Shown here: piece by piece, positions 283 to 47,808 of the stretch | Layout: each line of letters opens with the position of its first letter | Position numbering within the stretch: position 1 is the first letter of the stretch | Assembly (NCBI GenBank): GCA_043228905.1 | Contig: JBHGNT010000003.1 | Coordinates: 8,432,001-8,496,000 of the forward strand | DNA from: Azolla caroliniana | Lineage: Eukaryota > Plantae > Polypodiophyta | DNA: 64,000 nt | Direction: 5' to 3' | Made by a program: the position numbers and the translations under genes | Notes under the pieces: generated by a model | Databases searched by the model: none | Seen by the model: only the letters and a program-made list of their open reading frames with translations | What the model was told of the DNA's origin: nothing

Positions 283-4112
<3,830 letters not shown>

Positions 4113-4609
4113 TATTAATGGTGATGGATGAGATGAAGGTAAAAACGTTATATGTTAAAATAAATACTCAAAGTAAGCCCAAAACAGAACAATTGAAGAA
4201 ACCCTAAAAAAATCTGATTAAAAAAAAAACACACTATACAAGAGAGGAAGAAGATGATCACAAAGTTCAGGCAGCCCAAGAGATTGAGTTGAGAGGGATG
4301 ATCAGAGATTGTGTAAGAGATGGACATATATACAAAATACAGAGAGAGAGAGAGACACGTTCTTGTTCATGAGAGATTCTGGTCAAATGCAAGAAGACCT
4401 TGGAATGATTTTTAAAATTTTGTTTCATGTGAGAAAATGTGGAGTGGAGGAAGGTTTTGGTAGAACAAGTCTTTCATGATGAATCATGGGCACTAGTAGT
4501 ATGATAGATCATAAGTAGTATATTAATATAATTTACAGACTTAGTCAAGATGGGCTTTAGGTGGGATGGTGTCCATTTCTCGAGCTCCTCGTTCTGGACA
4601 TAATCCAAT

Positions 4610-8479: not shown

Positions 8480-10210
8480 CCTAACTCTATATGCTGTTTA
8501 TCGAGTTTTAGTATAAATAGGGTTTTGGAGACCAATTGGATACTTTGTATGTTTGAACTCTCCTCCTAAGGGATTAACTTCAAAGAAGAAGTGAAATCCC
8601 TTGACCTCCTATTGAGCTTGCCAGCGAGCTGGGAGGTTTTCTACACGACATTTGCCAACAACTATCCAAATTTCAATTTGGATGAGACAATCAGACAAGT
8701 CCTCACTGAGGATGTTAGGTGAAAATCCATAGGGCTCACCATCAACGAGTCGGTAGAAGCCCACCACTTGACCGAGTCGATCGACAGATTCAGTCGGTTG
8801 AGAGAACAAGCCCATAGAACAGATCGGAACACCAATTGGTCAAAAACGAGGGGAGATTGATAACGGTCGAACTCAAGAATGAGTTGATTAGGTGAATTCT
8901 GCACCCACTGCAGAAAAGCCGGTCACAACATTTCCGACTGTTGGTCAATCAAGAGGAAAGAGAGAGGTCGGCGATCCGACTCGAACCACTCTCCCGTCGA
9001 CAACCAAGGCAATGTTGCTGACACCCGATCGGGAGAAATCCTCTCCTTAGAGGACTCAATGATCGGAGAAATCCTCTATAGTGTGCAAGACGCACATACG
9101 TGGTTGCTGGATTTCGGTGCTACATTCCACGTTGTCGTGCCTTTCGGCTCCGGATCGTTTGCGTGAGTCGGGTGGGAACCATTGGGGTTTTGGACTAGGA
9201 AGAGGAGAGTTTTAAGGCTAATAAGAATATAAATATGTTGTAAGAAAGAGTTATAGCAAACTCGTGAATCCCATGAGTGTATTGTATTAGATTAATCAAT
9301 ATGAATATAAGAATATAAACTTCGGTTGAAAGAGAATGATATAGAATTCTCGTGAATCCCACGAGTATAGTTTATTAATTGGTGTTTTTTAGAAACATAT
9401 CTAGTTTCCAAATATTTTTCACACACAATTACATTGTGCTCCCCATCCTTATGTAGTGATGAGGAAGTCTTAGTAATCCATGCTTTTTCTCTAACTATAG
9501 ACCCCATGCTTTTCCTATAGATAGACTATATGCTTTATCTAAAGTGATCATGCTTTTTTCTAACTTGTGCGTTTTTTATCATGCACGCTAGATGTGTATG
9601 TGTAGCTTTTTCTTTTGTTATGCGTTTTTCTAATGTTTATCCTAGCGTGAATTTACCTTTCTACGTGGGACATCTATGCTTTAACACTAATGAAATGCTA
9701 GTGTAATGGTAAGACATTACATTATTAACATGGAGGTGCAAGGTTTGAATCTTGCCCTATGCATGTTCCATTTATTTTGCTATTTTCTTCTATTTCTTCA
9801 TTTTTTATTGAATCTAATACTATATACGTTTTTCACGTAGTGTACAAAATACACTACGACACTCGCCCCCTCCAAACCCGCACATCCTCCGGTATGTGCC
9901 GAAGTTGTTGGTGTTTGTTAGTCTCCTCCGTCCGGTCTCTACCCGATTGGTTTCGTTGCCGGCTCGTAGTACCCTCGACTTCTCTTGTTATGTTGACTTT
10001 GTCTCTCCATTTGGAGCACATCCATTCTTTCCACCCGAACCATTGTCGACATCCGATCCACCATAGTCTTCGTTCGCTTTTTGCATGGCCCGCTTGGTCC
10101 TTGTCATCCGCGGTAGTATCTTTTCTTGCCCTCTTTCTTTTCTTCATCAATCTCGACTTCTTTTCGGATTTTCGGTTTAGTCGGATTAGCTTACTTCCGA
10201 TTCGGTCTCG

Positions 10211-11884
10211 TCAGATCGTCTTTCGTTTAGTTCGGCTTCCTTTCCGATTTGTATTCGGTCGATCCGGACTCGGTTGATCGGTTTTTACCGATTCAGTGCT
10301 CTTTCGGGTCGGTTTCTTTTCTTTTCTTTTCGTCCGGATTTGCTTTCTTTTCTTCGTTTTCACCTGCCTTGTCCGGTTCGACTTTCGGCACTTCTTTCCG
10401 TTGTTCGCCACGTAGGTCCTCCGATATGTGCTCGTTGTTCGGTCCTCGTGTGGTTGTAATGCATGCTTCTTTTCTCGCCGTAGCGCGTGCTTCATTATTC
10501 GCCATAACACGCGTTTCTTTATTCGCCGTAGAGCGTGCTCTGTATTACGCGCTTCTCCCGTCGTAGACCCGACCTCCGCATTGTCGCACTTTCTTTTAGA
10601 TTGGAATTTCGGATGGATCATTTTCCATCCGAACCGACTTCCGACTTTACCTTCCTCGCCGCCATCTCCCGTCTCTCCGGTCTCACATTGGTTCTCGGAC
10701 ACAACCGCCGAAGTCTCTAGATATTGTTGGCATGAATCCTCGGTATTACCTTCTTTCGTAGTTTCACCCTTAGCATTCTTCTCGGCTATCTCTTCATCGT
10801 ATTCGTCGGCTTCGACATTCGTTTTCTCTCCGCCACCTTCCGTCTCTTCGGTCTCACGTTGCCTTTCGATCGCAACCGCCGGAGTCTCTGGAATCAATGG
10901 TGGGGAAGTCTCGATATGGCAATCCGCCATTGATTCGTCCATAGCCACCTCCGATTCGATTTCGTCTTTTGTGGCTACCTCCTTAATCACATCCGCTTCA
11001 CACTCTTTATCTGCATCAATTATGCAAACATCTATTATGCTTACCCCTTTTTGACCCGATGTCTCGAGCACTTGTATCCCGAAATTTCCTTCTACACTTG
11101 AATTATCGGCCTTATCCTTCGCCATCGTTCTTTCACAAGACGAGTGGGTGTCTTGTTCCACTCTTTCTCCCGTGGTACCATCATGTTGTATTTCGGCCTT
11201 CATATTGGCTTCATCGTTTTTCCTCAATCGACCATCCTTCATGGGCCATGTCGTTGTTGACGAGATTCTCAGCTTCCTTTCATCATGTCTTCGGCATACC
11301 CTTTCGACTTTAGCCCAATCCTCGGTAAGGCCGTTCGCACCGTCATCATCTTCGAGTTCGATCCCAATGTCCATCCTTTCTTTCGGATCGATCGATCTTA
11401 CGAACATTAAGACTTTATCTCCTCCCACCAATCTTCGTTCCCGCTCCGAGAGTCGAGCAAAACGATGCTCGAACTCTAGGAACGCTTGCGTTGCACTTCG
11501 GTGAGTCTTCTCCGACGCCACCCATTCGTCGAATTCTCGTCGATCTCGTCCCGTCCATCTCTCATAGTCATATGCCTCCCGTAAAGCTTCTTCAAAGGAC
11601 TCCCATGTCGAGTTTTGTTCTTGTATCTTGTGGATTCTCTCTTGTAGTTCGTCCGAGGCCACCCGACTAAAGGATATCACTTGCAATCCTTCCGGTATCC
11701 GATATTGCATCATCTCCGCCTTATATTCACGTAGGTAGCGTGACACACCCTTACCGTTGAATTCCCCGTTTCGTCGCAGAAGCCGCTCTACTGCCGCCTT
11801 CATCTCCGACATCGCACGTTGTTCTTGTTGCATCCGCTCAAACATTATCATCATCATGTTCATCGCCTCTTGTTGATTCTCCAT
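10211..11884 (-). CDS. Intact ORF of element A: gag N-terminal domain fused to acidic then basic low-complexity tail
   Basis: N-terminus FNGKGVSRYLREY..FSRVA..WESFEEAL..KVLMFVRSID aligns with the gags of B and C. No stops over ~557 codons. Confidence 0.8.
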   Translation of the reverse strand: MENQQEAMNMMMIMFERMQQEQRAMSEMKAAVERLLRRNGEFNGKGVSRYLREYKAEMMQYRIPEGLQVISFSRVASDELQERIHKIQEQNSTWESFEEALREAYDYERWTGRDRREFDEWVASEKTHRSATQAFLEFEHRFARLSERERRLVGGDKVLMFVRSIDPKERMDIGIELEDDDGANGLTEDWAKVERVCRRHDERKLRISSTTTWPMKDGRLRKNDEANMKAEIQHDGTTGERVEQDTHSSCERTMAKDKADNSSVEGNFGIQVLETSGQKGVSIIDVCIIDADKECEADVIKEVATKDEIESEVAMDESMADCHIETSPPLIPETPAVAIERQRETEETEGGGEKTNVEADEYDEEIAEKNAKGETTKEGNTEDSCQQYLETSAVVSENQCETGETGDGGEEGKVGSRFGWKMIHPKFQSKRKCDNAEVGSTTGEARNTEHALRRIKKRVLWRIMKHALRREKKHALQPHEDRTTSTYRRTYVANNGKKCRKSNRTRQVKTKKRKQIRTKRKEKKPTRKSTESVKTDQPSPDRPNTNRKGSRTKRKTI

Positions 11885-12480
11885 CTCCTTGCCACCCGCC
11901 TTCACGTCGGGTTCACCAACTGTGTCGTGCCTTTCCGCTCCGGATCGTTTGCGTGAGTCGGGTGGGAACCATTGGGGTTTTGGACTAGGAAGAGGAGAGT
12001 TTTAAGGCTAATAAGAATATAAATATGTTGTAAGAAAGAGTTATAGCAAACTCGTGAATCCCACGAGTGTATTGTATTAGATTAATCAATATGAATATAA
12101 GAATATAAACTTCGGTTGAAAGAGAATGATATAGAATTCTCGTGAATCCCACGAGTATAGTTTATTAATTGGTGTTTTTTAGAAACATATCTAGTTTCCA
12201 AATATTTTTCACACACAATTACATTGTGCTCCCCATCCTTATGTAGTGATGAGGAAGTCTTAGTAATCCATGCTTTTTCTCTAACTATAGACCCCATGCT
12301 TTTCCTATAGATAGACTATATGCTTTATCTAAAGTGATCATGCTTTTTTCTAACTTGTGCGTTTTTTATCATGCACGCTAGATGTGTATGTGTAGCTTTT
12401 TCTTTTGTTATGCGTTTTTCTAATGTTTATCCTAGCGTGAATTTACCTTTCTACGTGGGACATCTATGCTTTAACACTAA

Positions 12481-12553
12481 TGAAATGCTAGTGTAATGGT
12501 AAGACATTACATTATTAACATGGAGGTGCAAGGTTCGAATCTTGCCCTATGCA
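12481..12553 (+). ncRNA. tRNA-like / Pol III A+B box module in element A LTR (second copy at 9691-9763)
   Basis: A box TAGTGTAATGG with D-stem GTGT/ACAT; T arm GCAAG-GTTCGAAT-CTTGC; downstream TTTT. The acceptor stem is poor, so this is not a canonical tRNA. Confidence 0.6.
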
Positions 12554-14684
12554 TGTTCCATTTATTTTGCTATTTTCTTCTATTTCTTCATTTTTTATTG
12601 AATCTAATACTATATACGTTTTTCACGTAGTGTACAAAATACACTACGACAACGTGACCCCTAACATCGAATGGTTTTCGAACTATTCGGCTGGCGCCAG
12701 CGGCACAGTCCGACTAGGCAATGGGCAGGAATGCAAAATCGCCGGAGTAGGCGAAGTACCAATTCAATTATCGAATGGCAACACAATTGTCCTATACCAA
12801 GTTCGGCATGCACGTGCACTAAAAAGGAGTATGGTCTCCATTAGCATGTTAGCCGAAGACGGGTTCAAAATGACTCTTAGTGAGTCGACATGAATGATCA
12901 CGAGGGAACCTAAAGATCGGAAATGGACACAAGTACAATAACTTGTATCCACTGATGGCAATCAATCCAGAAGGGGGCGTGGATGTAGCCAAAACGACTG
13001 ACCCGAACTTATGGCATGGCCGACTCGGCCATATGTCTCAAGCCGGACTAGACCGACGAATGGTGGTCGGCTACGTCCTGAAACTCCTGGCGAAGATTAA
13101 CTTCTATGAGCATTGTCACAACGGGAAATAGAACCGAAGTCCGCACTTTCTCCACTACGAGACGGTACAACAACCCCTAGAGCCCGTCCACACAGAAATA
13201 TGTGCGCATATGCCTGAGAGATCCCTAGGTGGCTCCCAGTACTTCATCACATTCGTAAATGATTGTACACGGAAAGTCTGGGCCTATTCGATTAGGTCGA
13301 AAGATGAAGCGCTCGAGGTCTTCACTCGGTGGATAGCTGAAGTGGAGAACTAGTTGGGACACAGAGTGAAGACACTCCAATCTGACAATGGAGGAGAATA
13401 CACCTCCCGAGCCTTCAAATAGTACCTATCCGACAAAGGGATCCGGCATCAAAAGATCGTTCCATACACACCCATGCAGAATGGAGTGGTAGAACAGATC
13501 AACCGAACGATCCAAGAGAGGGTGACGACAATGCTCCAACAAACCAGGCTGAAGCTGGAGTTCTGTGCTGAAGCATTGGAGACGGCAATATACCTGATAA
13601 ATCTATCACCGTCGAAAGCAATCAGGTTTGAAGTGCCATAGGCACTATGGTCATGCAAACACCCGACCTACGATAGGCTCCGTATATTCGGATGCGAAGC
13701 CTACACATTCATCCCCTGGGAGAAAAGAACCAAGTTGGCACCCCATGCAACAAAATGCCTATTTCTCGATTATGGAATCGTTGGGGAATTCGGCCACCAA
13801 CTATGGGACCCAGAGAACCGGAACTGATCCGGAGTAGTGATGTAATCTTCAATGAAGAATCTATTCTCTCTGAGAGGAACCCGCAGAAAATAGTTGGTAA
13901 AAAGGTATCCTTCAAAGTTGATGAAGATAAGGACCAACCCACCGGGCTGAATCAGAGATTCGACAAACAGTCGAACTCGACCAAGCCGACAACACACTAG
14001 CCGACTCCGAATCGTCAAAAATTGGATTCGACAAAGAGATTGGCAAACCAAGGCAAAACATACACACCCACAAAGGCTAAAGCGAAAACCCAAACCGAGT
14101 TGGCTAAGTCTCCTATCTCCAAGTCAATCAATCCCGAAGCAGTAGAGGATGACGTGACATCGCCGACCTCCTATTACAGGGACGAGTCATCTAACAGGAC
14201 TCCTGACATAAGTGGTTCAACAAATTCCAATCGAAGGATACAGACCGATCAATACAACACTCGGGAGATCTAGACGAGTTCGGAGGTCGATGGAGTTCTA
14301 TCAATCGGGCCTCGACTACATCAACTACACCGATGCAGGCGAACCAAGCACATATGAAGAAGCCATAGTCACACCAGATGCTGACACATGGATACAAGCC
14401 ATGAAATCCAAGATGGACTTGATTCATCAGAATCAGACATGGGAGCTGGTTGAACGACCAACTGGAAGGAAGTTGCTACCCTGCCAATAGGTCTTCAGGT
14501 ACAAATATGTATCTGATTTAGAAAAGCCCAAATACAAAGCTCGGCTCATCGCGAAAGGATTCAAACAAGAACATGGGGTCGATTATGACAAGATATTCGC
14601 ACTAGTAGTCAAGATGACCACCCTTCGGTTCCTACTTGGGGTCGTGGCAACAAAAGCCCTAGAGCTCGAGCAAGTGGACGTAAA

Positions 14685-16746
14685 TGTCACATTCTAGACT
14701 TGAACCTTTGATTTTTAACACACACAATACATTGTGCTGTGTTAACCATATGGAAACTCTTGTCAACTATCCACATTCGATTGTGAACTTATATATATTG
14801 TAGAGTCTAGTGTATAGTACATTCGAGAATATTCTAGTCGTTAGTATATTCTAGAATTATTCTTTGGTATATTCTAAACGGGTATATTCTCGATTATATT
14901 CTCGAGATATTTCTTGAGTATATTCTAGAGATATTCAATCTCGGAAATTGTATAAATACTTGTAACATCCTTGGTTCCTTTTAGGGGATTCAGCACGAGT
15001 CATTGACACATCAATCTAATATTCTCGTTTTGCCTCATCTTTGTCTCTTGGATCATTATTTTTGTCTTCATGCCCTCATGTCGCTCACAACATCTAGCTC
15101 CAAGTTCATCCGTCGCTCATAGCCCCATCATCTGTGCTCCGTCCTAGTTTGCGCTTGGTGTGTCCGTGACAGTTGGAATCCCTTCCAACTGGGAGCACCA
15201 CCCGTCTTTGTCATCACCTTTGCTTCTAGAATTTCCATCATCATCGTCCTTGCTTCCGAAGCTACCATCATCAACATCCTTGTCTTCGATATCATCATTT
15301 TCAGCACCTCTTCGCCCAACCATCGTTGTCATCAACACTACTTGTCATCATTTTAAGGTATCATTTTGCATCACCTTCCCAATTCTGGTGGGGGTCACAA
15401 CCGCTCACTTTCCTGGTGGGGATCGGATCATTTCTTGCTTGCACTGCATTTTCGTTATAGTCCAAGTCTCGCGCCACTTTCTATTGGCGAGGACCGATTT
15501 CGATCGCTCACCTTCTAATTTCGGTAGGGGTCGCAACCGCTCACTTTCTTGGTGAGGATCACGTGGGTTTCTCGTTAGCGCTACTGTTTGTGCCGTGTCT
15601 TGGGTCAACCTCAACTATTTACCCTCTCATAATAGAAGAAGTCGAGTTGGCCGCTTCACTTGCACTCCTTCGCTCGTTGTTGTTCCAGTTCTCAGTGAGG
15701 GCCACATGGCCGCTCACGCCCATTGGTGTTCGTGTTCCAAGTCTCGGCGAGGACCGACGTGGTCTCCCATGCCCGTTGGTGTTCGTATTCCCTATGAGGA
15801 CCGCCCATGATCTCTCACTCCAACTATTGTTTGTGTTCCAGATCCTGGAGAGAACCGACATGGTTGCTCATGCTTGCTGTTCATGTTCCAGTTTCCGGTG
15901 AGGACCACACATGGTCACTCATGCCCGTTGGGGGTCGTGTTCCAACTCTCGGCGAGGACCGACATGGTCTCTCATGCCCGTTGGTGTTCGTGTTCCCTGT
16001 GAGGACCACACATGGTCACTCACGCCTGTTGGTATTCGTGGTATTTGTGTTCTAGTTCCTGACGAGGACCGCACATCGTCGCTCATGCCAGTTGGTGTTC
16101 AGTACCTCGTCTTCTGGAAGGGTTACTCCTTGTCTAGGATTTACAAAATACTTTGGAGGTGGTCTAAGATTTTCATCAATAGTATCCCGTTAAGCCAACC
16201 ATCGGTTTGGGAAAACAACGTAAGAGGGGGGATAATGTCACATTCTAGACTCAAACGTCTGATTTTTAACACACACAATACATTGTATTGTGTTAACCAT
16301 ATGGAAACTCTTGTGAACTATCCACATTCGATTGTGAACTTATATATATTGTAGAGTCTAGTGTGTAGTACATTCGAGAATATTCTAGTCGTTAGTATAT
16401 TCTAGAATTATTCTTTGGTATATTCTAAACGGGTATATTCTCGATTATATTCTCGAGATATTTCTTGAGTATATTCTAGAGATATTCAATCTCGGAAATT
16501 GTATAAATACTTGTAACATCCTTGGTCCCTTTCGGGGATTCAACACCAGTGATTGACACATCAATCTAGTATTCTCGTTTCACCTCATCGTTGTCTCCTT
16601 GATCATTATTTTTGTCTTCATGCCCCTCATGTCGCTCACAACATCTAGAGTTACTAGGCTCATCACATCTATCTCCAAGTTTATCCGTCGCTCGTAGCCC
16701 CATCATCTATGCTCTGTCCTAGTCTGCACTTGGTGTGTCCGTGATA
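14685..16746 (+). mobile_element. Element D: non-coding LTR element (TRIM/LARD-like); LTRs 14685-15171 and 16236-16746
   Basis: TSD GTAAA; PPT AAGAGGGGGG; TGTCAC..GTGACA ends. The internal ~1.06 kb has no retroelement ORF. Host RT frame DVK|LTF is restored on removal. Confidence 0.9.
15695..16101. repeat. Degenerate ~50-56-bp tandem array inside element D
   Basis: About 8 copies of GAGGACC(G)ACATGGTC.CTCATGCCCGTTGGTGTTCGTGTTCC. Confidence 0.85.
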
Positions 16747-18581
16747 GTAAAGTTGACATTCCTCCATGGAGACCTAGAAGAAGACATCTACATGTCTCAA
16801 CCGGTAGGCTTCTTAGCGACGGGGGGGGGAGAGTCACCTCGTATGTTGACTAAAGAAAAGCCTAAACGGCTTATAACAAGCGCCAAGGACTCCTACATCC
16901 GACAACTCGGCTACAACCAGTCCGACTCTGACCCATATTTATATACTTGGCAACTGGCTGACAAGTCCCTATACGTTAACGACATGCTGATATCAGGGAG
17001 CAATCAAGCCGAAATCGGATGACGAAAACTCTTCGGCTCTCCTAGTCTGACTACATCTAAAAGGTGCTTAGACGCTTTAATATGGAGAACGCGAAGCATG
17101 CACCAACACTACTTCCGACAATGATCCGACTATCGAATAGAGAATCTCCTTCAATGGATAAGGAGAGAGAGCTCAATGGAAAGATACCCTATCCATCGGC
17201 CGTAGGAAGTATCATGTACGCTATGGTGGCGACTCGACCCGATCTTGCATATGCCGTAGAGGTTGTTAGCCGGTACATGTCGAACCCATGACGGAAGCTT
17301 TGGGAGGTTGTCAAACACATATTCAGGTACCTAAGAGGGGCTGAAGATGCACAACTAACTTTTGGATTGACAAACTCGATCGAAGTCGAAGGGTACACTG
17401 ACTATGACTATGCCGGGAATTCGAACAATCGGAAGTTGACATCGGGCTACATCTTCACCTATGGTGGCAGTGCCATATCATGGAGGTTGAAACTTCAAGA
17501 GTGCATGACCCTTTCAACCATAGAGGCCGAGTACATAGCAACATCGAAGGCAACGAAGGAAGCGATCTGGCTGCATCGACTACATGCCGACTTCTTAGCA
17601 ACAAACCAAATCGACCGACCAACGCTGGCCATCTATTGTGATTCACAGAGTGCAATACACCTCATCAATAATACTGTTTATCATGCAAAGACAAAGCATA
17701 TTGAGGTAAGGTATCATCACATCCGGGAGCTAGTAACAGAAAAGAAGCTTGAATTCCGGAAGATTGACACCAACGCGAACATCGCCGATTGCTTGACGAC
17801 GCCACTCCTAGAACATCACTTCAGAGCATTAAGGACAAAGATGGGATTACGACAAGCGACAGAGCAGAAGAGTGCTAAATGAGGAGCATTAGGTAAGTCG
17901 AATACCTACCCGATCAGACGAACTGACAAGGCAAAGTCAAAAAAATCGGAGGCTGAAGACGCAACACTGAGTGAGGACACCGACTGGAGAGAAAATGATC
18001 AAAGGGCCAACGAACTTGAGATAGATCGAGGACCTAGCGAGGAGCGCAGGAGCAAGCTCTAGTAGGAGTCAGGAGAACACTTCGAATTGAACACAATTCG
18101 ACTTAGACTAGTCATTGTGACTGACTTAGACAAGCCAACCTAGATGACTAGGCGAATAAGGCTAGATACCAACTTTACCGCTGCTGGCTCGACTATATGC
18201 CAACTGACTTGTAACCATAACCTTAGTTTAAAACTGTAATCTAGGTTTACGATGGAGATAACCCCTTACCATTGTATGTAGAAAGAGTAGTCCTTTTACG
18301 GGGGAGTTTGTTGGCATAAAAGGCCGACTCCTTCCACCTTGTACCCTAGTGTGAACACGTCTTGAAGTTAGGGCTTGAGTATATAACCTCAACCCTAACA
18401 TTGTAACTATAATGATGTTGTATCTTGAGTCTTGTAGAGAGAGTTACAGAATAACAAGAACTTCCATTGAAGCTTCGATATCTGTCGATCTACTGTTTTC
18501 TTCTCGTGTTGCATATATGTGTCGTTTGTTGTTCACATGCTTACAGGTCCTCACACGTTCTTCCATGTATATCTGTTCACA

Positions 18582-26250: not shown

Positions 26251-28114
26251 GGGGACAACGATGTGTTGAGCTACGAAGTGAGAGCTATAAAAGAGCTATC
26301 AAAATGTTTTTTTTTTGGTGAGGGAGAGAGAGCTATCAAAATGTTTTTTTTTGGGTGAGGGAGGGGGAGGGGAACAAAAATGGGTTTGGGGGGGCCAAAA
26401 TGGGGGAAGAACTATCAGAGATTTTTTTTCTTTGTGGGGGGAGGGGGGGGGGGGGGGGGGTTGGTTTAGCCAAAATAGCCAACATATATTTCCCCACTTG
26501 ATTGAGCCTTGCACCTGGCATAATTGCAACAAACGGCCAACCCCCCTGCCATATTCGATGGGATGCTAGGCAATCCCATAGAGCGTGTCGTATTGATTCT
26601 ACTGCAGTTGGACACTCTACACAATTAGGAGAGCTAAGGTGCCCACGTTTCCATGCTCCCACCTAGTGACTTATGTATTAATAGCCATTGGAACATGGTA
26701 ATTCGCCTTGCGTGTTGTTCTTTCCAAATTTTTTGCCAAAACTTGGTGATAATTGTGTGAGGAACTTGATATGTGTGCCTGACCTTTGCAGCAGCCGACT
26801 CTCGGGCAGTTTGAGCAGCTAGCATGTGGCAACCCAATCTAGTTGTGAATTGGAAGAAAGGGATGGGTTTGCTTCCTTGCTCTGCATAAGGATCACACCA
26901 TGTCCATTGTAAAGGGTCCCAACTGACCTTACGTAGCCATGTGTTTTCATGAGTACATATGTGCCAATCGGGTTGTACTTTGATCGGATCAGGATCTACA
27001 ATCCATTTAAGACCAGTATACGCGAGTACTCGAATTGCGTTATTCTGTGTTGGTGTCTTAGTGGCGCGCAATTCAGAGCCTTCGATCCTGTCTGGTGATC
27101 CCCTACCTCTCGGGATCAAAGATCCCTCCTCGTAGCCTATCCAGTTCTCCATTGTCGTCCTATGAGTAGCGGCTTCCATAAACAACAGAGCGTTATTGAT
27201 TTCCGATCTCATAGTCCATCCGCCCCGGATGCCATGGAGTATGTTGGCTTGATCTTGTAGTGGCAATGACATAAACCGTGTCCAACATTCTATACTTTTT
27301 CCCGGACCTTCTGCAATGTATCCCCATGACAACCCCTTACTTGACCCAAGTAATTGATTTGATTCATCCTTGATACATGGGTTCCGTAGGATACGTTGAC
27401 TGAGCCAGGCAGGTTCGGAACTCGGTTGATCGCACTTGAGCCCTCGTCTAATGTCACACCATGCCTTCCACATGGATGCACTGAATCTATCCTCCAATTG
27501 GCGGGAGAAACTAGGTTTGAGATCCATCTTTAGAATCCATCCCATTTGGGGGGCCCAATTAACCCCTTTTCCTTGCCTAAAGTAAGCAAAACGTAACCGC
27601 AATAGCATTTTCCAACAGTCATTTCCTGGTTGGAGTCCTCCCACCACAAATTTGGCAAGTACAACTTTTGATTGTGAGAGGGGATCAACCAGACCCAACT
27701 CCCCTCTCGACTTAGGTGCTGTGAGTATAGGCCATGCCACCTTGGCGCGAGTTACATGATCTTCCTTACCAAACCAAATGTAGTTGTGTACTAGTCGTCG
27801 AATCTGATGTATACTGTCCTTGGAGATTGTCCAACATGATCGACTGTACCATGCCGTTGCGAGTAGTACTTGGTTTGCCACTATGATGCGACCCGCTAGC
27901 GACAGTTTTTTCGAACTCCAATGTATCAACTTTTGTCGAATGGAATGGATAACGGGTGCAATCATAGTCTCCAGCGGTGTCAGAGTAGTTGTGGTTCGTG
28001 CGGCGAAGTCGCGGGGACTAAGGTTAAGGGGAGTTCAAGAAACTTAACTTTTAATAAGGCTTGTATGGTGATGATAGAATGTTAAGGATAGTAAGATGAA
28101 GAGTTACGAGTAAT

Positions 28115-28180
<66 letters not shown>

Positions 28181-28336
28181 CATAGATAAAAGATAGAGAC
28201 AATGTATGATTCAAGAAAGAAGATTGAGACAAAGTATGATTCTAGAAACAAGAGTATATGATATAAACATGATGTATATTAAAAACATAATATTTTACCA
28301 ACTTTACAATCCTTGATCGTAAGATGAATCTTTTCA

Positions 28337-28405
28337 ATACCGACCCTTGATTTGAACCCACGACTTCCACTTTGAAACGCGAGGCTCTTCACCGAATAAG
28401 ATATC
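28337..28405 (-). ncRNA. Further tRNA-like module in C LTR, sense orientation (copy at 47968-48037)
   Basis: D arm TCTT-ATTCGGTG-AAGA and B box GGGTTCAAATC at tRNA-like spacing. Confidence 0.5.
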
Positions 28406-28672
28406 TTCAACAGTTGCTTAGATTCCTTTTTCTCCCACTTTCTCTTGATTGATTTCTTGTTTTCCTTGCCCCTCTTTATATAGGTGTTGCCATGCATATG
28501 GTAATGTATGGGAGCATGGCATGCATGCAATGCATGAGTTACATCTAATGCATGATCGCCATTTGGCGCACATGTATTGCACGTGATGCATGGTAGCCAT
28601 CATGCTCACTTGAGCTCCCATGTATGAAAATAGATATAGGATAAGCATAATGATGAAAATGCATTCTAAAAT

Positions 28673-28873
28673 AACTAACCTAGGTTAGTGGTGTATACTT
28701 TGTGTTTGGCATACAAGGTTGAGAGTTCAAGTCTCTCAATTTTACTTAATACAATATATAGCTTCATTCTTATATCATGAAGCACATTTATTACATACTT
28801 TTACAAATAAATAGCCTAGCTTAGTGGTATGTACATTGTACTTCGTATATAAGGATATGGGTTCAAGTCTCTC
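28673..28873 (+). ncRNA. Two tandem tRNA-like/Pol III modules in C 3' LTR (single copy at 48308-48372 in the 5' LTR)
   Basis: A box TAGCTTAGTGG (TAGGTTAGTGG at 28681); anticodon-like arms TTGTG-TTTGGCA-TACAA and TTGTA-CTTCGTA-TATAA; T arm GAGAG-TTCAAGT-CTCTC; TTTT immediately after unit 1. Confidence 0.65.
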
Positions 28874-29031
28874 AAATATTATTAAATACAACATTTAAGT
28901 TCATTTTTATATCGTGAAGCACATTCTTCACGACACCCACCCCCTCTGAACTTGCACATTGGTTGTGCAGAGTTCATCCAACACTTCTTCCGATTCTTTT
29001 AGTTCTTCTACTTCTTCATAAAATTCGGGCT

Positions 29032-30117
29032 CTAATGACTCCTTTTAAATATTTTAATCCTTTTTCCTGCAATTGGGATACGAATTTCTGTCCCATCTAA
29101 TTCATTGAGGAAATATGTGGCTTTATTTGTTATTTTCCTAACTTCATAAGGTCCAAACCATCTTTTTGCAATCTTCCGGATAGTACTGTATTGATTATCT
29201 AGGCTACTATCATATACTAATACCCAATCTCCCTCTTGCACCTTTCTTGGTCGTATTCTTTTCATCTTGTCAAATCTGTCCTTATTCTTGATTCTTGCCT
29301 CTTTCAGTCTAGTAGCTGCTTTTTCTATGTCTTTTGTCCTTGATTGAAGTTGTCGTATTCGAACCGCAAGTAAATCTTCCCTACTCATTTCCAATTCCCA
29401 AGGCAACACAACCCATGTAGTTATCTTTTCTTCAATTGGCATTATTGGCTTCTGTCTTGTGATTAATTCTGCAGGCATATATCCAGTAATAGTACTGTGA
29501 GTTGTCCTATTAGCCCATAGTGCATAGGGTAAGGTTTTTGGCCAATCACTAACTTGTCCTCTACATGCCTTTGCCAAAGCTTTGACTATTGGCGCATGTC
29601 CCCTTTCTACCTTTCCATTAGCTTCTGGATTGTACGCCGTTGTCAAAGAAAGCCGAATTCCTATTTTGTCGAAAAAATCTTGAGCTTCCGCAGAATTGAG
29701 TTCTCCCCTATCTGCCACTATCTTCCCAATACATCCATATCTACAAACAATGTCCTCCAAGATGAATTGACATACTCCTAATGTCCCTTTTGTTCGCAAT
29801 GAATGGCCTTCCACTTGATTTGTTAGATCTTCTCTAGCAAGAACCAAGTATCTCTTTTGTCCTACTCCAAGTGACATTGTTACCAAATCTATCATCCACT
29901 TGTAATGCACCCTTGGTGAGTATGTTGGGTTTAACTCATCACAAAATTTTATATTTGAATAATATTGACAAGTGGGGCAAGTTTCCACATACTTCTTTAT
30001 TTCCTCATAGTATCGAGGCCACCAAAACCGTTCTTTAATCTTACTGAAAGTGGCCCACACTCGATGACCATCCCATTCTTTGTCATGCAACACTCTCATT
30101 ACCTCCTTTCTTTGCAC
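29032..30117 (-). CDS. Integrase of element C
   Basis: H..GH..CPTC zinc finger; ADRGE; NGKVERGH; WFGPY. No chromodomain. Confidence 0.85.
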   Translation of the reverse strand: MQRKEVMRVLHDKEWDGHRVWATFSKIKERFWWPRYYEEIKKYVETCPTCQYYSNIKFCDELNPTYSPRVHYKWMIDLVTMSLGVGQKRYLVLAREDLTNQVEGHSLRTKGTLGVCQFILEDIVCRYGCIGKIVADRGELNSAEAQDFFDKIGIRLSLTTAYNPEANGKVERGHAPIVKALAKACRGQVSDWPKTLPYALWANRTTHSTITGYMPAELITRQKPIMPIEEKITTWVVLPWELEMSREDLLAVRIRQLQSRTKDIEKAATRLKEARIKNKDRFDKMKRIRPRKVQEGDWVLVYDSSLDNQYSTIRKIAKRWFGPYEVRKITNKATYFLNELDGTEIRIPIAGKRIKIFKRSH

Positions 30118-31112
30118 TTCAGAATCTATTACTCTTTGTGGGTTTCCAGTCTTGGTATTTGGATGTCGTCATAGATATCCTTCATGCAAGAAGAACTTAT
30201 GGGTTAGCGACGAATTGACGGCAACCACTTTCATCCAATTCCTCATTCTTCTCTTCCTCCTTGCATCCCTTAATCGGAACATCATCTTAAAAAGGCATTG
30301 TAATATGAGGAATAAAATCACAAAGTACCTTGTTCATTCCATTCATCATATGTGCCACTGAGTTGGTCGCTCCTTGCGGCAAGGTACACATCCGTACTAA
30401 CCCTATATGTTACGGGCATGACCATTTAATATCTCGTGGTGAGAATTTACCGTAGTATTCTATACACGTGGATAAGTATGAGGGTTAAATGAGAGTGTAA
30501 AGAAGGGGAGGATTACTTTTAATCCTCGGGATTGAGACAACCCATTAGGTCAAGTGTGAACTTGCCTGGGGGCCTTGGGTATCGCTATAAATAAGAGGCC
30601 TAGCTACCCTCATTTGATGATCTTTTTGACTACATCGAGACTCTGCTCTTGTGATGGGTCAACTCTTGTAGTGAGCGCGCCAGCACCAGGTACGACTTGA
30701 TGCCACGGCGGTGGTATGGGACGCCGATCGAGGCTCGAGTCCGTCTCGATCCCTTCGCTCAGGGGTGGTCGGGTGGATCAACACCCTTCTTTCTCTTTCT
30801 CCTTTCTATCTATCATTTGTTTATCCTTATCTTAAGCTTACTTTAGTACTTAGATCTCTAATATTTGGTATCAGATTTATGTACTAATGTTTCTTTGTTT
30901 TTCATTTGTCCTTTGATTGATGCTGATCGATCGATGTGCGGTCGGCCTTGATCCAGACAACGATCAACAAAGAACTTCGGTAACTCTATCCATAATTTTT
31001 CTTTCTATTCTCTCTTCTCCTATCTAATCATGTGTTTAGTTTATATGTCATTTTTTTTCATTAAGTCAATGATGTTGTAGTGGTCTTTAATTGATTATCT
31101 AAAACGTTTACA

Positions 31113-33923: not shown

Positions 33924-36900
33924 TGTCGTGAAGAAAACCGTCCCCTGGCGCAATTGGTGAATAGCGCACATGAACCGGCCCTTCACGTGTGCGTGCTCTT
34001 AATGTATATAATAGAGAATTAGGTACAGAGAGAGATCCGGGGTAGTTAGATTCGGTAGGTAGGAAGTAAATGAGGGGAGACAGCTCCCTTCTTGACGCTA
34101 TAAAGGAGAGGCAGACGCAGGGAGAAGGGGATCGCACATTGAGGAGGACGAAGTGCTGTCGGACCGGAACCGAACGCTTCTCCTCTGTCTGTTCTCTGTT
34201 ACTCTTCTCTGTAGGTTTCGGGAGGCTCACATTGCTTCGAGGAACGCCCGTGTGCTTCCGGCAACACCTCCATCCTATCCCCATTTTGTGCGCAGACGAA
34301 CAGGCGTCGACATCTGTTCGCCGGCCTGTTCGGTTGTAGCTGTCGCGTGCTCTGCTGTGTACTTGTTATTCGTTAATATACAAACACTTGTCTCTCCCTG
34401 TCTCTGTGTCCATTCGCGTCTTCTGTGTTGACGGGCCACGCCCCTGTGTTTCTTTGCTCATACGTGACCGGGCGTCTCTCTCCTTCTCTTTCCCCTTCTA
34501 TCACCTGCTCTTCGGTTCAGGACCCCGGTGGTCCCGCCTTGTTTCTCCACGCACGCGCGTAACAACACGACATATTTGGTGAACCCGACGTGAAACAGGC
34601 GGCAGAGGAGCAGAAGATGAGGGGGTCGGATCTTGCAGAGGCCATGGCTTCGGCCGTGGACCGGATAGTGAGCGCGCGCGAGGGCACCGGCGCCCTTGAC
34701 AGGGCTATTGAGGCGATCGTTGGTACGATCGGCCGGTTCAGTGGAAAGGATGCCACAAGTTATTTGGCGTCCTACCGGGCGGAGATGTTGATGAGGGATA
34801 TTCCGGAAGAGAGGCGTCTTACCGGATTCCCTCGAGTGGCGATGCCGGGCATCCATGCGGAGGTGCTCGAGGTCCGGGCGGAGAGCCGGACCTGGGAAGA
34901 GTTCGAAGGACGGATCCTAGAGAAATACGGGCTGGATGACGCGCTTCGACTTTCGAAGTGGAGCTTCATGGAGTGGGTGGAGTCCCCCAACAAAGGAAGA
35001 AATGTGTCGGTACTCCTCTGGGAGTTTGAGGAACGCTTTGCGCGCCTTTCGGCGCTCGATCGAACTGTTCTGGACACAAGTCGTGTCCTACTGTTTGTCA
35101 AATCCGTTGACACACGGGATCGGGGGCAAGTTGGCTCCTTACTAGAAACCGAAGACGGGCTGACGACCGACTGGGCCGCGGTAAAGAAAGTCTGCGGCCG
35201 TTTTGACAAACGGTGGGAGTGGGCTGATACAGAGGCGACCGAGGCGGGACCTATCGCAACAAGGAAGCTCGAACCGATACCGCAGGCACGAAGGGAAGAG
35301 ACCCGGGAGTGGCTCGAAACTGGTTCGTCTTTGACCGGCGTGACCAGAGGTTCGTCCGGGAGAACAGCTCTGGAGGAGTTGACACGAGCGGTAAAGGATC
35401 TCTAGATCGCCCAAGCTTGGAGGGAAGGCGGCGATCAGGCTCGTGACCGACGGCCTTTGGCAGGAAGTAGGTGCATGTGGTGCGACAAGGTCGGCCACAT
35501 TCGGAAAGACTGCGGGGACTTTATGGAGGCTTTGAGAAGCCGAGTAGTGTACCTGTGGGAGGGTCAGGTGCACGCCAGCGATACCCGGAGGGCCCTGAAC
35601 CGAAACGACGGGAGAGGAGGAATGAAAAGGCTGATGGAAGAGGCGGCAGCCCGGCACGCCGAGACCATCCACTACTCAGCGTCAGGCGGTATTCGGGTCG
35701 GGGGCAGCGGGGCCCGGAAGGAGAGCAAAACCGAGTTCTGGCCGACGGTGCTGGAAGGCCTTGCTGGTGCCCGGCTGAAGAGAGACGAGGCGGACCGCGC
35801 GGAGAAGCGGGTCCAGGAGGTAACGGGGTGGAGTGACCCGGTCGAAGAAAAGACGGGTTTCGTCGAAGCAGCTTGCCAGAACTACGAGGCTCTGGTTGAA
35901 GACAAACGGGTAGGTAAAAACGGAGGGGCCGGACCCTCACAGAGATACGAAACCCGATTCGAGCCGAAACGGAACGAGGTCGGTGAGTCCAGTGCCCGAG
36001 ATAACCACAAGAAGGGCGGATACCGGTTGGGCACGGAGATCGAAAGGACCACGAACCTATGAAAGGTCCTAGAAGAATGAATCCTCGACAGCAAGGTGGA
36101 ACTGTCGTTGCGAGAGGTGCTCGGGATAGCCAAGAAGGAGTTCCACGACTCCATCGTGGACTTGGTGAAGAGGAAGAGGCTGTCGACGGAGGTAGAACCG
36201 GACAGGCCGGTGGAAGTGCGGACGACGCACATAGAGGACATGGCGCTGGAAGACGAGTGGGCGGAGAGCCACTATTCGAGGCCACACTGGGCCCGAGCGA
36301 CCACGGAAACCCCGGTGAAAATCGGAGATGTTCAGGAACCGGTGGTGGCACTGGTGGACCACGGTTCGGAAATAAACCTGATGTCCATGGACTTCTACAA
36401 AAAGGGGAAATGGCCGATCAACACTAAGCACGGGTGGAAGATACAGGCGGCGACGCGCGCCACCGAGGAACTACACGGGGCCTGCCCAAACGTAGGAGTC
36501 AAGATCGGCGACGTCGAAATAGACCAGCACTTCTTTGTGCAGGAAACGTCCTCGCACCCGGTCATTCTAGGGGAACCGTACATTACGGCGGCGTGAATGG
36601 AGACCAATGTGCTGGACAAGGGGTCGGCTTACGCGAGGGTTAAGAGCCAGGACGGGCGTCATTCGGTCCAGTTCTTGACGGTACGACCCAACCACGAGCG
36701 AAACCGCGAGTCCCTCGGTGCCGAGAACCGAGAGGATTTTTAGAGAGGGCTGCTGAGGCGTGGGGCCGCGACAGTCCCGACACTCCGGGAAAACCCCACA
36801 AATGTACGATAAAAGCAAAATTGAAGAATCCTTGTACCATAAGTAGGAAGTTTTGTTTCTCCGACAACGGAGGGTGTACGATAGTCGGCGTCGTAGGCCG

Positions 36901-43900: not shown

Positions 43901-45466
43901 GATAAATCAATAAAAGATGCCACATGGGAACGCGAAAATACTCTTAGAACTAATTTCCCTAACTTTCCATTGCAAGTGTGCAATGTTTTAAAGAGGGGGA
44001 GTATGTTACGGGCATGACCATTTAATATCCCGTGGTGAGAATTTACCGTAGTATTCTATACACATGGATAAGTATGAGGGTTAAACGAGAGTGTAAAGAA
44101 GGGGAGGATTACTTTTAATCCTCGGGATTGAGACAACCCATTAGGTTAAGTGTGAACTTGCCTAAGGGCCTTGGGTATCGCTATAAATAAGAGGCCTAGC
44201 TACCCTCATTTGATGATCTTTTTGACTACATCAAGACTCTGCTCTTGTGGCGGGTCAACTCTTGTAGTGAGCGCGCCAGCACCAGGTATGACTCGACGCC
44301 ACGACGGTGGTATGGAACGCCGATCGAGGCTCGAGTCCGTCTCGATCCCTTCGCTCGGGGGTGGTCGGGTGGATCGGCACCCTTCTTTCTCTTTCTCCTT
44401 TCTATCTATCATTTGTTTATCCTTATCTTAAGCTTACTTTAGTACTTAGATCTCTAATACTATAGGTGTCTTGATAGAAGTTATATCTCGATTTTTGATA
44501 GCAAGTTGAAATTGATCATACCCGGAATAAAGGTCTGCCACTGAATATATAGCTCTTCCTGCAAACATCTCAACAAACTCATCCACAATTGGCCCTACTC
44601 CCGAGTTTTGGATTGTTACCTTATTCACGGGTTGCATATCTTGGATAAATCGGAATCGACCATCTTTCTTTAACACAGTGAACCATCGACTCGAGTAAGG
44701 AGCGTTTGATGGTTCCAAGATACCCATCCTTATCTTTTCTTTTAGAAGTTCTAATAGTTGAGGGATTCTAGCCCTAGGCATGGGTATTGGCTTAAAGTTC
44801 CATGGAATATGAGGAATAGTGAATATAACCATGGGCTCTACAATTTCTGGATCCACACACCCAATTTCCTCAGGTTGGAATGCGAACGCCTTTCCATGCC
44901 TTTTTAACATCTCCCTGAATTGCTTTTCTTCAGAAGGTAATAGGAAGTCACCCCCTCCTATTTTCATCCCTTGTATTGTTTCCGAAGTAAACACATGTCC
45001 CACCTTTCGTGGGTCTCTAATCATTGGCTCTGTGGCTGCTTCTTTGATTGCTTTTTCACCCTTGGAAGTGGAGCAGCAATAGGAAGAACCTTCTTCTCCA
45101 CAGTCTTGTACTTTATTAGTACATGTGCTTCATGATCCTTTCGAGCAACTTCTTCAATGACCTCGTACATCTTGATTGAATGGACAGGAACTTGGATTTC
45201 ATTGTCTTCTTCCATTGCTTCCAAATGAGTTATTGTATCTTCAAAACTTAATTCTTCAAACATATCTTGAATTTCTTCATCACCATCTATTAATCCAGAA
45301 CACTTAAAGTACTCGAAAGCATTTTGTATTTTATTATTATTTACTTTTAGTATAAAAGTAGCACCATTAGATGAGATTGTACAAGGAATATCTTTATTTA
45401 CATTATTATTCATGGGGTTTTCTTTTATGTTCAGGCTATCACAACCCCTACCTGTAAAATCCCTAT

Positions 45467-47581
45467 CTAAAAATCCTGGGAAAACTCTTCATCCATCTCT
45501 TGAATTGGATGTTCCCTCAAGCATTCTTTGTTTCTTTCATGGTTGGGCCTCACAGTTAAGAATTGGACAGTCTTTCTTCCATCTTGACTCTTGATTCTCG
45601 CGAAAGCCGAACCATCATCAATAACCTTTGTTTCCATCCTCACTACGGTGATGTAGGGCTGACCAAGGATGATGGGGTAGGTTGATCGATCTTGCACAAA
45701 GAAATTTTGATTCACTGACACATCACCAATTGTTACCTTCACACTAGGACATGCTCCATATAGATCCTTCGTAGTCTCTGTGGCGGCTCTTATTTTCCAC
45801 CCATGATTCTTGTCGATCGGCCACCGTCCTCGAGCGTAAAATTCCGATGACATCATGTTAATTTCGGATCCACGATCGATCAAAGCAATACATGGAAGTT
45901 GTTGCTCCCCAATTTTTGCAGGTGCCTCCGTTGTTGCTCGAGCCCAATGGTCCCTTGTATAGTGACTCCTATCCCCTTCATGGACGCCGACATCATTCTG
46001 GTTTTTTACACTTGCAGCATTGATGGTGCCACCATACAAATCTTGGAGTGCTGTTGCACACCCTCCTGTAATTTCCTCCGTCACCTGTGTCTTCCTTCTA
46101 ATAATATCTATGATAACTTCATGAAATTCTTTCTTTGCTATACCCAACACTTCTCTTAAAGTAATTTCTACCTTACTATTTAGTATTCTTGTTTCTAGTA
46201 CCTTTTTTATATCCGTCGTCGTTTCTATGTCTGAGGCAAGCTTGAAAGATGGGCATGTCTTTCCTTTTACTTTATCAGCTTCCTTCGGCTCAGTAGCACC
46301 CTTTTCCATCTCCCTTCTCTTCTGTTCTCGTGTCTCATGTCTCTTTGTCGGATCAGCTTCCTCAGCTCTCTTCCGCTTCTCTTCCACTACCACATCTTGT
46401 GCATTCACTTGGGCGAATGCTGATAGTGCGTCTACTAGATCATTCCATCCAGTGAAGTTTTGTATTTCATCTCCCGCTCTTTTTAATTCATCCACTCGAA
46501 CCTTCCCTTTTCTTGCATAATCCATCACATCTTGCCAAAATCCAGATCCATCATATGCGTCTTCTACGCGCAACCCTAAGGTTGCCACGGATTGTATCGC
46601 TTGAGTCGTTTCTCTCTCGGCATCTTCCATTAGCTTTTTCATTCCTCCTCGCCCGAAGTTGAGTTGAAGTGGTTGTTGAGTCTCTGTTGAGTGAATCTTG
46701 CCCTCTTGATAGTAGATTTTATTATGATTAAGAGCATCCCTATCCTCTTGACAATCTTTCTTCTGGTGGTCAATACTATCACACCACACACACCTTCGGA
46801 CCATTCCACCTCCCTGCCTTGATGAAATCGAGCTTTGTCCCGATTCTAGTTTCGTCACTTTGATCGACAAGTCTTTCATGCCTTTCACCAATTCGTGTAA
46901 GAGTGATTCTTCTACTTTCTTCTCTCCCGACTCGTTCCCTGTTTCTTCATCATTTCTGTCGGGCAACTTCATAAACCATAACTTTCTTTTGTAGAAATGG
47001 GCGCACGTCCTTTTTACCTCCTCCCAGTCTTCGATAAGTCCACTTGGACTATTCTGATCTTCTAAAAGCATTCCCAAGTCCTTCCTGTCTTTAATATTAG
47101 TAGCTTGTAGAAGCAATATGACTTTATTTGGCACTATTATATTTCTATCTCTAACATTTAGTTGCTCAAATCTTTCAGAAAACTCTTTTAATACTTCCAA
47201 AACACTTAAATGTTTATCAGACTCTACCCAATCCATCAAAGCTTTCCTTGTCATCCTTGACATATCGTTGAGGTTGTATTCATTCAATAATGCTCTTTCG
47301 AAAGTCACCCATGTATGATGCTCTCTCTGTAGCTCCTGGACCCTTTCTTGTAGCCCAATCGCAACGACTCGACTAAAGCTATTAATTTTTGCAGCTTCGT
47401 CGACACTGCATTTAAGCATTTCTTCAATATAAATCTTCAAAAATCTTGTTAAATTTATACCTTCGAAGATTCCTACTCGTGCGAGAATATTGTTGACGGC
47501 TTTGTCGATGCTTGCCATCATCCCTTGTTCCCGCATCACTCGTTCCATCATCGTACACATAAGCCTCATTTGCTCCTCCAT
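45467..47581 (-). CDS. Gag-protease ORF of element C
   Basis: 704 aa open; CVWCDSIDHQKKDC knuckle; protease ALIDRGSEIN..ILGQPY; ends SQDF-stop at GGATTTTTAG. Confidence 0.85.
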   Translation of the reverse strand: MEEQMRLMCTMMERVMREQGMMASIDKAVNNILARVGIFEGINLTRFLKIYIEEMLKCSVDEAAKINSFSRVVAIGLQERVQELQREHHTWVTFERALLNEYNLNDMSRMTRKALMDWVESDKHLSVLEVLKEFSERFEQLNVRDRNIIVPNKVILLLQATNIKDRKDLGMLLEDQNSPSGLIEDWEEVKRTCAHFYKRKLWFMKLPDRNDEETGNESGEKKVEESLLHELVKGMKDLSIKVTKLESGQSSISSRQGGGMVRRCVWCDSIDHQKKDCQEDRDALNHNKIYYQEGKIHSTETQQPLQLNFGRGGMKKLMEDAERETTQAIQSVATLGLRVEDAYDGSGFWQDVMDYARKGKVRVDELKRAGDEIQNFTGWNDLVDALSAFAQVNAQDVVVEEKRKRAEEADPTKRHETREQKRREMEKGATEPKEADKVKGKTCPSFKLASDIETTTDIKKVLETRILNSKVEITLREVLGIAKKEFHEVIIDIIRRKTQVTEEITGGCATALQDLYGGTINAASVKNQNDVGVHEGDRSHYTRDHWARATTEAPAKIGEQQLPCIALIDRGSEINMMSSEFYARGRWPIDKNHGWKIRAATETTKDLYGACPSVKVTIGDVSVNQNFFVQDRSTYPIILGQPYITVVRMETKVIDDGSAFARIKSQDGRKTVQFLTVRPNHERNKECLREHPIQEMDEEFSQDF

Positions 47582-47758
47582 TTGTCCTCGTCGCCGCCTT
47601 CACGTCGGGTTCACCAAATGTGTTGGAGTAGTTGTGGTTTGTGCGGCAAAGTCGCGAGGACTAAGGTTAAGGGGACTTCAAGAAACTTAACTTTTAATAA
47701 GGCTTGTATGGTGATGATAGAATGGTTAAGGATAGTAAGACGAAGAGTTACGAGTAAT

Positions 47759-47808
<50 letters not shown>

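Follow-up and report, generated by a model that had tools for sequence, protein, structure and literature searches.

The window analysed here, a 64,000-nucleotide stretch of the Azolla caroliniana genome, is occupied by a nest of retrotransposons, in which self-comparison and Pfam searches revealed an L1-type LINE split by an element designated C. The nest is four levels deep (window 26634-52322): the LINE contains C, C contains a chromodomain-bearing Gypsy element (LTRs 30406-30863 and 44002-44459), and the latter in turn contains element B (5' LTR 33924..34572, +), which is of the same lineage as C. Element C lies on the minus strand, with a 3' LTR of 958 nt (27978-28935) and a 5' LTR at 47621-48433 that are 97.9% identical when gaps are excluded, flanked by a 4-bp target duplication at 27974-27977 and 48434-48437. 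Its interior is interrupted by nested elements and carries, all on the minus strand, a primer-binding site (47599..47616), a gag-protease ORF (45467..47599; 710 aa, DUF4100), the integrase part of pol (29032..30168), and a polypurine tract (28936..28948) whose motif recurs in related loci. Element A (9133-12651; 3' LTR 9133-9861, 5' LTR 11923-12651) is a non-autonomous relative, 3.5 kb in length. The named proteins nearest to those of the window's elements come from Riccia and Adiantum, and two scans of viral contigs yielded no relative. Both LTRs of C include a (TG)n(AG)n microsatellite (window 28104-28178), and at 3444-4154 (-) the window holds an exon of a calcium-dependent protein kinase-like gene, for which a kinase search matched plant CDPKs only; these protein matches are in keeping with a non-seed land plant as the likely host.

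All three elements A, B and C have a 4-bp target duplication with a central CG (NCGN), and they share a primer-binding site, also present in many related loci, which we take to be of the tRNA-Trp type. Pfam searches found no chromodomain in B or C, and the coding region fills their interiors. Phygy, a clade of non-chromovirus Ty3/gypsy elements, is described as having a 4-bp NCGN target duplication, a compact interior and, in 81% of cases, a tRNA-Trp primer site, which is the dominant Phygy primer type in REXdb (Neumann 2019, PMC6317226). Since the duplication and primer site agree with that description, we file A, B and C as putatively Phygy-type, a placement made by features, as the integrase tree described below comprises window and locus sequences alone. 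The portions of the Phygy description available to us differ in leaving LTR-borne Pol III boxes unmentioned.

A sequence-only reading of this DNA had proposed that the LTR of C carries three tRNA-like units, two in antisense tandem and one in sense, and all three are found in the 3' LTR, the A box of the third being weak. The tandem, tRNA-derived units 1 (28674..28745, +; A box from 28681, B box 28724-28734) and 2 (28810..28881, +; A box from 28817, B box 28860-28870) are antisense to the element and 136 nt apart, each with an A-to-B spacing of 43, and are accompanied by a T4 run at 28740-28743 and a T5 run at 28904-28908, respectively. Unit 3 (28337..28410, -) is in sense and has a good B box (28358-28348), its boxes spanning 28403-28348 (-) at a spacing of 45. 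Between antisense units 1 and 2 and sense unit 3 stands the predicted Pol II TATA box of this LTR (28474..28483, -), downstream of a CATG-rich U3 stretch and 5' of unit 3. The 5' LTR of C keeps only one of the two tandem units (A box 48316; a 137-nt gap relative to the 3' LTR) and a sense unit (about 48034). Locus L001, the closest relative of C (92% integrase identity), has two units at the spacing seen in the 3' LTR of C; two tandem units are therefore likely to be the older state. Similar motifs had been claimed for the LTRs of A and B. The claim holds for A, with an antisense module in both the 3' LTR (9692..9763, +; A box 9699) and the 5' LTR (12482..12553, +; A box 12489), and falls for B, where an A-box-like word at about 33946 lacks a B box at tRNA spacing and is absent from 14 other LTR starts in B's clade; a unit in B was rejected on both counts. 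In a separate small LTR element (window 14683-16748) we observed an antisense B-box-like word (14694-14709), for which no A box stood out clearly; the first LTR of this element is followed by an unusual stretch that resembles a tRNA end.

Relatives of these elements were retrieved from metagenomes by integrase alignment, and the best 80 of 233 confirmed loci form the sample used below; most of them have the same polypurine tract and LTR start as the window elements. In this sample, A and B boxes at a spacing of 43 or 44 gave 31 matches in 89 LTR-bearing regions (58,559 nt, near-identical copies included) and none in 209,313 nt of coding interior, with a mean of 0.2 and a maximum of 2 in 50 shuffles, while all other spacings from 36 to 63 together gave 15 matches in the LTR regions; because the units are related, these counts are not independent. 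Many families of coding plant retrotransposons keep A and B boxes at exact tRNA spacing, usually antisense (18 of 25 non-redundant units), with the fold decayed. The units are covered, at a depth comparable to that of other LTR parts, by contigs from four public DNA runs that represent three studies and three organism codes, and one-unit variants are present among these contigs.

The distribution of the units is nonetheless uneven, and the idea that they mark the whole tRNA-Trp-primed lineage does not survive: of 24 Phygy LTR clusters in the 80 loci, seven have strong units, two have weak ones only and 15 have none (B's clade among them, and three of the 15 being short or partial), and worn relics also occur beside Copia sequence. 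The unit is therefore dispensable. In a quick integrase tree of the window and the 80 loci, unit-bearing rows are dispersed over many clades, and the 19-row clade of B lacks the unit except for a C-like inserted piece in L071; the tree has SH-aLRT support only, and so we claim no order of gains and losses. One unit type, that of A, is common to distant clades, and a chimeric LTR in L005 (7143-7330) has a C/L001-like LTR start inside it at position 128, which is missing from its sister LTRs in L015 (3') and L019; these two observations indicate that exchange of U3 contributes to the spread of the units. Tandem partial duplications of the half of the unit containing the variable loop and B box were seen at L004:3284-3397 and L042:4248-4333.

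What is kept within the units is the boxes and their immediate tRNA context. In 17 non-redundant units, tRNA positions 44-47 (variable loop), which played no part in the first scans, are 88-100% conserved and position 33 is T in 76%, with a pairwise identity of 37% in the anticodon arm; that the boxes, positions 44-47 and T33 stand out supports a tRNA ancestry. Among 48 pairs of homologous units, identity is 0.93 at the 11 core box positions and 0.91 at positions 44-47, compared with 0.63 in the spacer, 0.64-0.66 in the flanks, and a random baseline of 0.43-0.45. A search with flanks only returned 40 sites; nine that were judged by eye to be non-syntenic or in the wrong register were set aside, and 26 of the remaining 31 keep at least 10 of the 11 core bases, as do 19 of 2000 random sites. 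Part of the box conservation in these two tests is circular: the boxes served to find the units, and both tests were seeded by unit-bearing LTRs. In contigs of related organisms aligned to unit 2, 21 of the 32 spacer positions and 4 of the 22 in the boxes carry variants, three of the four being degenerate positions; the flanks of these contigs lack variants altogether, owing to an end effect, and the contrast is therefore one of boxes and spacer only.

The fold, by contrast, has not been kept. The sequence-only reading had relied on a 5-bp anticodon-like stem in both tandem units of C, and this stem does pair 5/5 in each, with differences that are one-sided wobble changes; no cloverleaf stem covaries, and across families none beats cross-module or shuffle nulls, so the argument from the stem fails. 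Of the cells examined for pairing, 54.2% pair in the units and 55.9% in shuffles, RNAalifold found no pair on the units, and the anticodon-like stem of C is fully paired only in three C-type units (3 of 25, against 1.8 expected). Columns 28 and 40 pair in 18 of 21 rows, which we attribute to chance, 13 pairs having been compared. Neither the cloverleaf nor the anticodon stem was accepted as a conserved feature. Nor do the units appear to be functional tRNA genes, as no paired cloverleaf was detected in the stem tests or by two search programs: ARAGORN found no tRNA gene in the window or in 60 of the 80 loci, an Rfam scan of 12 module-bearing loci with E up to 10 gave no tRNA match, and unit 1 scores 24.2 bits against the Rfam tRNA family RF00005, below its gathering score of 29. 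A 5S rRNA-derived domain likewise had no Rfam match in the window. Plant tRNA genes are characterized by upstream CAA and TATA signals (PMC3082873); neither is enriched before the units, with CAA at 5 of 23 (mean 3.8) and TATA at 11 of 23 (mean 6.7, maximum 13).

With the boxes and their spacing kept and the fold not, the pattern suggests that what matters is the DNA itself, as a site for TFIIIC, and not an RNA made from it. The position of the units is consistent with such a role: in all 11 LTRs for which strong antisense units and a TATA-like box were both found, the units are upstream of the box, at about 150-240 nt for the nearest one, and some families have an extra sense unit downstream. 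Our preferred reading, to which we give somewhat less than an even chance, is that the A and B boxes of several Phygy-type families are selected as TFIIIC sites that keep the element's own Pol II promoter open and shield it against silent chromatin in the flanks. A tRNA, or the head of a tRNA-derived SINE, would have entered U3 once or several times, and would then have been copied into both LTRs in each round of replication. TFIIIC would bind the unit and TFIIIB would load upstream of it; where the unit is antisense, upstream means towards the TATA box, some 150-240 nt away. The unit in the 5' LTR would thus stand between host flank and promoter, pointing outward, and might act as a barrier, a block to read-through or a nucleosome-phasing site; any Pol III RNA made would be incidental and short, about 75-110 nt in the case of C. 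The U3 cassette may further duplicate in tandem and move between families by recombination. In yeast it is established that Pol III complexes act as barriers and roadblocks and in the phasing of nucleosomes, and tRNA genes there are able to repress Pol II promoters in their vicinity as well (PMC4228148). We put forward more tentatively, and as a rather doubtful generalization, that autonomous LTR retrotransposons of more than one superfamily in plants have captured tRNA promoters, use them through TFIIIC as portable, outward insulators that bracket the Pol II promoter and permit activity within silenced nests, and spread them by exchange of U3.

The alternative that deserves most attention is that the units are passenger SINE heads in U3, hitchhiking with successful U3 types, whose boxes seem conserved because only the survivors are detected; we regard this as unlikely, though by no means negligible. 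It would account for the patchy distribution, for the exchange of U3 between families exemplified by L005, for the damaged copies in L025, L071 and unit 3 of C, and for the relics beside Copia sequence and in host flank, and a SINE origin has been proposed for Helenus elements (Kojima 2024, PMC10886601). Against it, the boxes persist while spacer and flanks drift within one insertion, the place and spacing of the units are fixed, no A-rich tail was seen after the units by eye, and neither the remainder of the 64-kb window nor 157 kb of DNA from the other loci contains a strong free-standing unit. The earlier claim that the units are built in rather than random SINE insertions is borne out as far as their occurrence in the LTRs of many related families and of high-copy relatives goes. 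Units in many families, at high copy, with boxes kept amid drift, do not form the pattern of a few random SINE insertions. Unit-free sister LTRs do not align at the unit site.

When 498,882 nt were scanned with a sequence model, all strong units fell within Phygy LTRs or LTR fragments; outside these, the scan detected three worn relics, two of them beside Copia RNase H sequence. The first (L051:1205-1253, +; 17.5 bits, E 0.0015) is antisense, upstream of a TATA-like box, and about 45-95 nt inside an apparent Copia 3' LTR (RNase H end, purine tract, TG); the second (L045:12016-12072, -) has a good B box and a poor A box directly after a Copia RNase H fragment; and the third (L003:7735-7776, +) is a truncated, module-like stretch in host flank, 540 nt past an LTR.

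It might also be the product that matters, if the units were genuine Pol III genes and their short RNAs worked against silencing, for instance by an antisense or decoy action; we consider this improbable. T4 runs are depleted within spacers (1 of 25 units, 5.0 expected, P 0.02) and enriched within 45 nt downstream (15 of 25, 7.8 expected), a pattern that we count for the preferred reading as well, although the DNA downstream is T-rich and the T4 counts are therefore inflated. Eight of 25 units fold better than their shuffles (z below -2), common variants in the anticodon-like stem of C's family preserve pairing (A>G at 28840, 28849 and 28851, T>C at 28850; a post hoc observation, partly on unit-1 contigs), and the Pol III miRNA cassettes of foamy-virus LTRs offer a precedent (PMC3993851). 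Yet neither sequence nor structure is common across families, and spacers differ at the same LTR site of near-identical elements (L020 and L022). A third possibility, to which we assign a small probability, is that the boxes now serve as sites for Pol II factors or as nucleosome-excluding sequence, without TFIIIC; the fixed place upstream of the TATA box and the absence of the plant Pol III upstream signature would fit, whereas the retention of both boxes at the exact 43/44 spacing in either orientation would not. We think it very improbable that Pol III-targeting retrotransposons use the units as landing pads, or that Pol III makes a genomic RNA from the sense unit in the manner of Helenus. 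For sense units situated downstream of the TATA box, the next T4 is indeed 62-110 nt off or missing, but most units are antisense, the elements measure 7 kb or more, no insertion lies just upstream of any unit in the window, and Phygy itself targets NCGN (PMC6317226).

As far as we found in print, an LTR built around tRNA boxes has been described only for tiny, non-coding elements. The logic suggested for C by the sequence-only reading, that of Cassandra with a tRNA in place of 5S, is already on record as Helenus (TRIMp3), though for non-autonomous elements only. Helenus TRIMs resemble the present case in having tRNA-derived LTR sequence that is conserved around boxes A and B, is not a functional tRNA, and is predicted to function in Pol III transcription; they differ in being non-coding and 311-1263 bp long, with a box thought to make genomic RNA (Kojima 2024, PMC10886601). 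The units described here belong to gag-pol-coding Gypsy elements, number one to three per LTR, are mostly antisense and lie beside a TATA box; as to the small size (up to about 1.3 kb) and non-autonomy of Helenus, C encodes gag and pol, and A is non-autonomous at 3.5 kb. Because the units occur in coding elements, their boxes cannot simply be making genomic RNA, and the antisense orientation of 18 of 25 also argues against a Helenus-like role. Kojima reports one plant Helenus family only, in Selaginella, holds that autonomous partners should not share Helenus-type LTR sequence, and remarks that 'not a few' Repbase LTRs contain tRNA-like parts, his analysis being confined to TRIMs (PMC10886601). 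Our finding extends the TRIMp3 idea to coding elements.

Other systems are alike in part. Cassandra TRIMs have an internal Pol III promoter in plant LTRs, as here, whereas their boxes A and C are 5S-derived, the elements are non-autonomous, and transcription has been shown (PMC7215508). The LTRs of simian foamy virus carry A/B-box Pol III units with terminators in an autonomous retroelement, but yield miRNAs from conserved hairpins (PMC3993851); our units have tRNA spacing and no structure common across families. The tDNA and ETC boundary or roadblock sites of S. cerevisiae provide the product-independent action of TFIIIC beside Pol II promoters that we propose, although they are host loci and not part of a mobile LTR (PMC4228148). 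The available parts of PMC7466625 and PMC13570524 contain nothing on such LTR units, and in the mainly open-access literature that was searched we found no report of Pol III boxes in the LTRs of Phygy or of any other autonomous plant element.

These LTRs bear on the question of whether TFIIIC or tRNA-gene barriers exist in plants, for which a review, in the portions available, states that no counterpart of yeast or animal barrier elements has been reported (PMC9540200). Should the broader reading of a portable insulator in more than one superfamily be true, no TFIIIC barrier would have been shown in plants before, and the units would represent a new anti-silencing strategy. Such LTRs come in thousands of natural copies, some with a compact two-box site beside a Pol II promoter and some lacking it, and the question of plant barriers becomes tractable by a few point mutations in a moss. 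At a practical level, unit-bearing LTRs can inflate counts of tRNA pseudogenes or SINEs.
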